Positions 12,821-12,974 of a DNA stretch of 64,000 bases are shown piece after piece. The position numbers were made by a program, and so were the translations under genes. Source of the stretch: Leptogorgia sarmentosa (Eukaryota); the NCBI GenBank assembly GCA_964658305.1, contig OZ210885.1, positions 19,654,001 through 19,718,000 of the forward strand, in the 5' to 3' direction. Within the stretch, counting starts at the first letter, position 1. Each line of letters begins with the position of its first letter. The notes under the pieces are model-generated. The model was not told where the DNA came from. It saw only the letters and a program-made list of their open reading frames with translations, and made no database searches.

Positions 12821-12893
12821 CCCGCGGTAGTTCAATCGGTAGAACGTCGGATTGTAGCTCCGGATGTTGGTGGTTCGAGTCCATCACGTGGGA
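12821..12893 (+). tRNA. trnY: Intronless tRNA-Tyr(GUA) inside the Polinton
   Basis: Cloverleaf CCCGCGG-TA-GTTC/GAAC-TCGGA[TTGTAGC]TCCGG-ATGTT-GGTGG[TTCGAGT]CCATC-ACGTGGG-A. Anticodon GTA at 12854-12856, C1:G72, A73, A and B boxes, TTTT at 12899-12902. One G-A mismatch in the acceptor stem. Confidence 0.85.
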
Positions 12894-12974
12894 TTCTCTT
12901 TTCCACGTCGCCCGCAACACCTGACACCTAAATAGGGGGTGTGAAATCCTTTAAAAAGGGGGTGTGGGAACCAA

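Follow-up and report, generated by a model that had tools for sequence, protein, structure and literature searches.

Viral tRNA genes are familiar from phages and giant viruses. Within the Polinton group, polinton-like viruses (PLVs), along with virophages, are the nearest described carriers, with 558 tRNAs in about 8,300 genomes and proposed roles in codon compensation or in countering tRNA depletion (PMC12220804). MELD viruses, which are likewise Polinton-related, are flagged with tRNA genes in a single mention (the legend to Fig. 6 of PMC8502044), and the main text of the same paper mentions no tRNA for adintoviruses. The main text of a coral polintovirus survey (PMC11131425) contains 0 occurrences of the term. 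In the open literature, searched as listings and abstract openings apart from the papers cited here, we found no report of tRNAs in animal Polintons. Other comparable genes are those of adenovirus VA RNA I and II (PMC7589676) and of the MHV68 tRNA-miRNA RNAs (PMC4378190), which are likewise Pol III-transcribed viral genes: their A and B boxes are internal, they end in a U4 terminator, and a tRNA origin is either proposed or evident.

Eukaryotic cytosolic tRNA-Tyr(GUA) combines C1-G72, A73, the GUA anticodon, a short variable loop, and the Pol III layout (PMC12168002, PMC11408192, PMC9976931), and its nuclear genes typically carry an intron after position 37. The eukaryal identity set is A73, C1-G72, G34, and U35 (PMC9976931). 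A sequence-only reading of the locus described below had stated that pseudouridine-35 depends on the intron, and this dependence is indeed published (PMC11408192, PMC12168002): in yeast, the intron is required for both pseudouridine-35 and m1A58, and its loss sets off the stress response. Supplying one more intronless copy of tY(GUA) brings back the tRNA level and growth and represses the stress response again (PMC12168002). When pseudouridine-35 is lost, stop codon readthrough falls and Tyr decoding is unaffected (PMC11408192). Annotated intronless Tyr genes are enriched in pseudogenes, and those of yeast are without m1A58 and less stable (PMC12168002).

Here we describe an intronless tRNA-Tyr(GUA) gene in a Polinton of Leptogorgia sarmentosa, located in a 64-kb window (the whole stretch of DNA analysed). 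ARAGORN called a single tRNA in the window, tRNA-Tyr(gta) at positions 12821 to 12893 of the plus strand (73 nt, CCA not encoded), and Rfam RF00005 matched it at 56.9 bits (E 1.3e-09; cut-off, 29 bits), which was the sole Rfam match in the window. The other 63.9 kb gave no further tRNA match with ARAGORN, Rfam, or a tRNA model of our own. Neither ARAGORN nor Rfam placed an intron in the gene; the one expected after position 37 in host nuclear genes of this type is missing behind the anticodon (12854 to 12856). Of the 21 cloverleaf pairs, 20 are standard and one, 7:66, is unpaired, a feature absent from the sequence-only description of a full cloverleaf with eukaryote-type Tyr identity, which otherwise agrees with our calls. 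The identity set is complete, with C1:G72, A73, G34, and U35, accompanied by G37 and a 5-nt variable loop, and the tertiary bases are all present (U8, A14, A15/U48, G18, G19, A21, U33, G53-C61, T54, T55, C56, and A58). The Pol III signals named earlier were likewise located: we take 12828 to 12839 in the D arm to be the A box and 12872 to 12882 in the T arm, also found by pattern scan, to be the B box, and a T4 terminator lies at 12899 to 12902, where variant copies have a T run too. The minimum-energy fold is not the cloverleaf (cloverleaf, -22.4 versus -24 kcal/mol; z, -1.2). Because tRNA-like host repeats in a prokaryote genome bin discussed below (G001) score 57 to 63 bits against the same family, the score of 56.9 bits is no proof of function.

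This gene differs from each of the described systems. The PLVs and virophages are also small integrating double-stranded DNA elements with tRNAs of their own, but those reported in PMC12220804 are cryptophyte and environmental PLVs, whereas the element here is an animal-type, integrase-encoding Polinton whose gene is subterminal, belongs to a normally spliced isotype, and has a series of tRNA-derived relatives. MELD viruses differ by their other replicases (PMC8502044). VA RNAs, at about 160 nt, have long stems (PMC7589676), whereas the element gene consists of a 73-nt cloverleaf and nothing more, and its Tyr identity is complete; the VA RNA length, apical and terminal stems, and Rfam family match were sought in it and not found. 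Unlike the MHV68 RNAs, which carry pre-miRNA hairpins (PMC4378190), the tRNA-Tyr ends 5 nt ahead of its terminator with no appended hairpin and no long duplex.

For the host counterpart, the window offers a proxy in the primer-binding site (14727 to 14744, plus strand) of a BEL-type retroelement that neighbours the Polinton and lies outside it; we take this site to represent the host tRNA-Tyr 3′ end. It matches the last 15 nt of the element gene at 9 of 15 positions. The 3′ ends thus differ, and the claim that the element gene is long diverged from host tRNA-Tyr has those 15 nt as its basis.

The tRNA had been described as Polinton cargo, and its setting bears this out. The right terminus of the element is ACTACT at 13279 to 13284, presumably the Polinton terminal motif. 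In all four of the sequencing runs concerned (X1, X4, X5, and X7), contigs of the repeat that flanks it on the right read differently ahead of 13285, and this divergence fixes the element end at 13284. The tRNA points outward, 391 bp inside that end, and is separated from it by a C-rich tandem repeat block (12979 to 13224; repeat families D3 and D5) that is likely part of a terminal inverted repeat (TIR), the other element end lying outside the window. Polinton genes span bases 1889 to 12455. The core genes, on the minus strand at 2955 to 7342, encode a protease, a major capsid protein (in pieces), a penton, and a chromodomain integrase (in pieces), identified by tblastn with the proteins of a related Polinton locus, L018 (E 1e-16 to 1e-85), and by Pfam matches to rve and Chromo. 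They are followed on the plus strand by a collagen-repeat open reading frame (ORF) (8414 to 10543; Pfam Collagen, E 9.7e-41) and a 176-amino-acid (aa) ORF. The company of capsid, protease, and integrase genes is that of a Polinton/Maverick cargo position. A pPolB gene, a packaging ATPase, a second TIR, and a target-site duplication are absent from the window, whose left part is occupied by a LINE; pPolB was found in four related loci (L036, L040, L044, and L048). We are confident that the tRNA-Tyr gene is real and borne by the element. A small ORF region is duplicated within the element (7669 to 7755 and 8025 to 8111, 79% alike), and a 14-bp tandem repeat lies at 11711 to 11912, upstream of the 176-aa ORF.

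Copies of the locus in sequencing runs allowed us to follow its variation. The stretch was present in 7 of 15 listed runs (two studies, two organism labels), of which X1 may derive from the very sample behind the window, and variants were drawn from contigs of X1, X4, X5, and X7 in a first pass and of X1, X2, X4, and X7 in a second. Fifteen positions of the tRNA-Tyr varied among contigs, in variant tables that are incomplete (position 45 appears in one pass and is missing from the other). The paired states were deduced from matching depths and loose ends, with haplotypes partly phased. Both sides of the D-stem pair 11:24 changed, turning U-A into C-G, the T-stem pair 50:64 takes G-U, U-G, and U-A forms that are all paired, and the acceptor pair 4:69 has at least two paired forms, G-U and U-A; pairs 5:68 and 7:66 are variable and unphased, and the variable unpaired positions are 17, 26, and 45. 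Most variation at paired positions therefore preserves pairing, which is the compensatory pattern that the sequence-only reading had proposed to look for. No variant among those listed fell at positions 1 to 3, 70 to 73, or 27 to 43. The chance of none at 27 to 43 is about 0.011, and the apparent invariance of the anticodon arm is suggestive, in contigs that were recruited through shared words and are biased toward an invariant core. The flanks of the tRNA cassette among those listed are few, of element type, and common to four samples of two studies. In one subfamily, the predicted exonuclease gene (the 176-aa ORF) is joined almost directly to the tRNA cassette; a 52-codon ORF that lies head-to-head with the tRNA (12537 to 12695, minus strand) is skipped or replaced in one subfamily, and one contig each in X5 and X7 joins 12455 to 12806, bypassing it. 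One contig holds two diverged tRNA cassettes in tandem. The earlier reading had staked itself against a SINE head peculiar to this copy and against a lack of covariation; what we found is that flanks recur and stem pairs are kept.

Acceptor-stem pairing and the discriminator base are dispensable for TFIIIC binding. Both are nevertheless kept here, and selection thus seems to act on the RNA. Retention of acceptor stem, discriminator, and anticodon alike implicates the synthetase, and this favours a working tRNA that buffers translation. Our preferred reading, to which we assign a probability of roughly 0.45, is that the tRNA-Tyr is a chargeable, splicing-independent viral tRNA that sustains translation. 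Host RNA polymerase III would transcribe it, directed by the A and B boxes and stopping at the T run, RNase P and RNase Z processing and CCA addition would mature it without splicing, and host tyrosyl-tRNA synthetase (TyrRS) would charge it via C1:G72, A73, G34, and U35. It would probably be without pseudouridine-35 and so permit little stop codon readthrough. Once charged, it would keep translation of element proteins going while the element is active, and the benefit would most likely come less from codon matching than from a buffered tRNA pool or stress response. Capture of host tRNA genes by Polintons seems to have happened again and again; some lineages, such as this one, would keep a decoding tRNA, and in others the anticodon arm would drift while the promoter boxes and terminal stem stay. 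Against a working tRNA stand relatives in the same place without a normal anticodon arm, the 60 of 77 related loci without any such unit, the unpaired 7:66, and the fold that differs from the cloverleaf.

Codon compensation was considered separately and is unsupported: of 20 other Polinton loci in which no Tyr tRNA was seen, 2 had a TAC excess at least as large as the 0.20 of the element. In a relative with a His tRNA, CAC accounts for just 14 of 50 His codons. The element leads 18 loci in Tyr content (56.5 per 1000; next, 55.7), but gene sets differ among these loci.

Relatives of the element were found through the 176-aa ORF (11925 to 12455, plus strand), a predicted DEDD-fold exonuclease that served as a marker gene. 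The prediction rests on an alignment with 27 homologs, a structure model (pLDDT 85), and Foldseek, whose top match was the C-terminal domain of the LCMV nucleoprotein (NP) (E 1.7e-4), with arenavirus NP exonuclease domains, oligoribonucleases, and RNase T nearby (E about 2e-4). Pfam left the ORF unmatched, and a sequence search of the PDB with the exonuclease alignment gave nothing significant. Protein scans of a viral contig collection yielded no relatives. The ORF is widespread among related Polintons: the alignment recovered 77 metagenome loci (314,823 bases; median, 2,872), several with pPolB. Many related loci appear to be cnidarian, judging in part by a SINE head. At the ORF itself, a 27-nt inverted repeat (93%; 11942 to 11968 and 12461 to 12487) links its start to its 3′ flank, an arrangement that could let the mRNA form a closed loop. 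Two related loci have histone 3′ UTR stem-loops scoring above the Rfam cut-off shortly after the ends of exonuclease-family ORFs (L022:1724-1768 and L025:602-648).

A scan of related Polintons for tRNAs, as had been suggested from the sequence, returned a tRNA or tRNA-derived unit in 17 of the 77 loci, with near-duplicates among these (L048/L049 and L011/L012); the other 60, many of them short, had none. ARAGORN at default settings called 11 tRNA genes in 10 loci, Rfam confirmed 3 among 20 related loci tested, and a tRNA model built partly from these genes matched 11 loci at E values up to 0.01, 8 of them by construction. Six further positive loci came from pattern scans or weak matches judged by eye. 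A loose scan for A and B boxes gave 29 matches versus 5 to 13 in shuffles, and the units taken from it were chosen by eye. Pooled pair counts mix isotypes and phage tRNAs and show merely that the set consists of tRNAs. The relatives hold Arg-ACG, His-GUG, Asp-GUC, Trp-CCA with iMet, and a short-arm UCA tRNA, as well as two related tRNA-like units with boxes, terminal stem, T run, and a variable middle. Tyr is one isotype choice among many in related Polintons, a point that the sequence-only reading missed. The UCA (opal) tRNA occurs in two loci (L020:465-537 and L036:71-142, both minus strand; 64 of 73 positions alike) with a weak D stem and beside telomere-like terminal repeats. Programmed UGA readthrough by this tRNA was ruled out, as the in-frame stops are a mixture of TAA, TAG, and TGA and are unshared.

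Two loci led to prokaryote genome bins with animal-type DNA, G001 (via L082) and G002 (via L083), which have 61 and 7 Polinton capsid matches, respectively; this DNA is likely host contamination, and G001 contains eukaryote-type tRNA arrays. Among 13 Polinton contigs of the two bins, three have a Thr-like unit with an expanded arm, one has a decayed unit, and nine have none.

Under an unlikely alternative, the RNA would be produced yet serve as a decoy or regulator in the manner of VA RNA and the MHV68 tRNA-like RNAs, binding stress or RNA sensors, TyrRS, or the small-RNA machinery, with decoding incidental. In six related loci (L035, L039, L043, L047, L073, and L074), a variable non-tRNA middle is enclosed by retained boxes, terminal stem, and T run, with five of the six units pointing outward at a putative end, and the Thr-like units in three G002 Polinton contigs have anticodon arms expanded in different ways. 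The predicted fold of the neighbouring gene resembles arenavirus NP exonuclease domains, and a tRNA gene origin has been proposed for VA RNA itself (PMC7589676). The element gene, in contrast, is a plain cloverleaf closely followed by its terminator, free of hairpins and long duplexes, whose tRNA family is the only Rfam family in the window and whose Tyr identity set is entire.

We consider it rather unlikely that the gene acts as DNA, with occupancy by TFIIIC and Pol III forming a boundary against host silencing or opening a terminal replication origin. The geometry points this way, in that outward orientation recurs with unrelated isotypes: the distance to the end is 391 bp here and 179 to 341 bp from the putative end in seven relatives (L020, L035, L039, L043, L047, L074, and G002:C113), whose ends were assigned from motifs and from points where sister loci diverge, and the subterminal units usually adjoin a repeat block. 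Such a role leaves unexplained the stem-preserving changes in the acceptor and the retention of C1:G72, A73, and GUA. Moreover, the His, Asp, Trp, and iMet genes of relatives are internal or point inward, and G001:C401 lacks a tRNA although its two terminal repeats are present. Both the decoy and the boundary readings are kept alive by the terminal geometry held in common and by the relatives without an anticodon. In five of the loci (L035, L039, L043, L047, and L074), the subterminal repeats that separate the Pol III unit from the putative end contain TTAGGG-like words.

A further explanation, which we regard as improbable, would be a single capture of a tRNA or tRNA-like repeat from the host, carried since as a passenger of the element end, its apparent conservation being due to ascertainment. 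In its favour, tRNA genes and pseudogenes can number above 17,000 in a cnidarian genome (PMC2888827). A G001 contig without Polinton genes contains a repeat with 79% likeness to the G002 Thr-like unit, the L047 iMet matches host-type iMet at 65 of 73 positions, and decayed units exist (L031, L044, and L055). A mere passenger is harder to reconcile with a cassette that is kept in diverged subfamilies despite rearrangement of its flanks, with changes at paired positions that mostly keep pairing, and with the lack of any other tRNA match in the window. That the gene is the head of a host SINE inserted in this single copy is very improbable: tRNA-headed repeats do occur in L040 and G001, but the gene here has no SINE body or tail, its T run follows immediately, the SINE-like head in L040 matches it at just 44 of 73 positions, and the same few element-type flanks in four samples make a one-copy insertion unlikely.

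A search for a donor of the tRNA-Tyr found none. A blastn search of phages returned mostly tRNA-Asn at 71 to 79% (55 and 53 of 73 positions). A further comparison took in 80 distinct viral tRNAs chosen for a shared T arm, where the highest counts of matching positions out of 73 went to Gln (57), Phe (56), Tyr (55), and Asn (51). With top matches of 50 to 57 of 73 spread over several isotypes, the likeness is generic, and neither a donor nor an Asn-to-Tyr switch can be named. Four IMG/VR matches have the D arm alone in common with the tRNA-Tyr, and patterns for the anticodon arm found nothing in the metagenome, viral, and prokaryote collections. One viral contig (L222), also chosen for a shared T arm, has an intronless short-arm tRNA-Tyr(GUA) that starts with C and is alike at 55 of 73 positions.

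A broader proposal, which we put forward as doubtful, is that animal Polintons routinely capture host tRNAs into a subterminal Pol III slot, along a full path from decoding tRNAs (Tyr; Arg, His, and Trp) through the short-arm UCA form to units with only boxes and a terminal stem, and that the Tyr gene gives a tRNA resistant to stress and independent of an intron, forming with an arenavirus-like exonuclease a module against host translation shut-off. If true, this would make the series a living example of how adenovirus VA RNA could have come from a tRNA, as has been proposed. The graded series from tRNA to tRNA-like units at Polinton ends offers natural intermediates with which to test that proposal, and it implies that some tRNAs annotated as host genes in such genomes are viral cargo.
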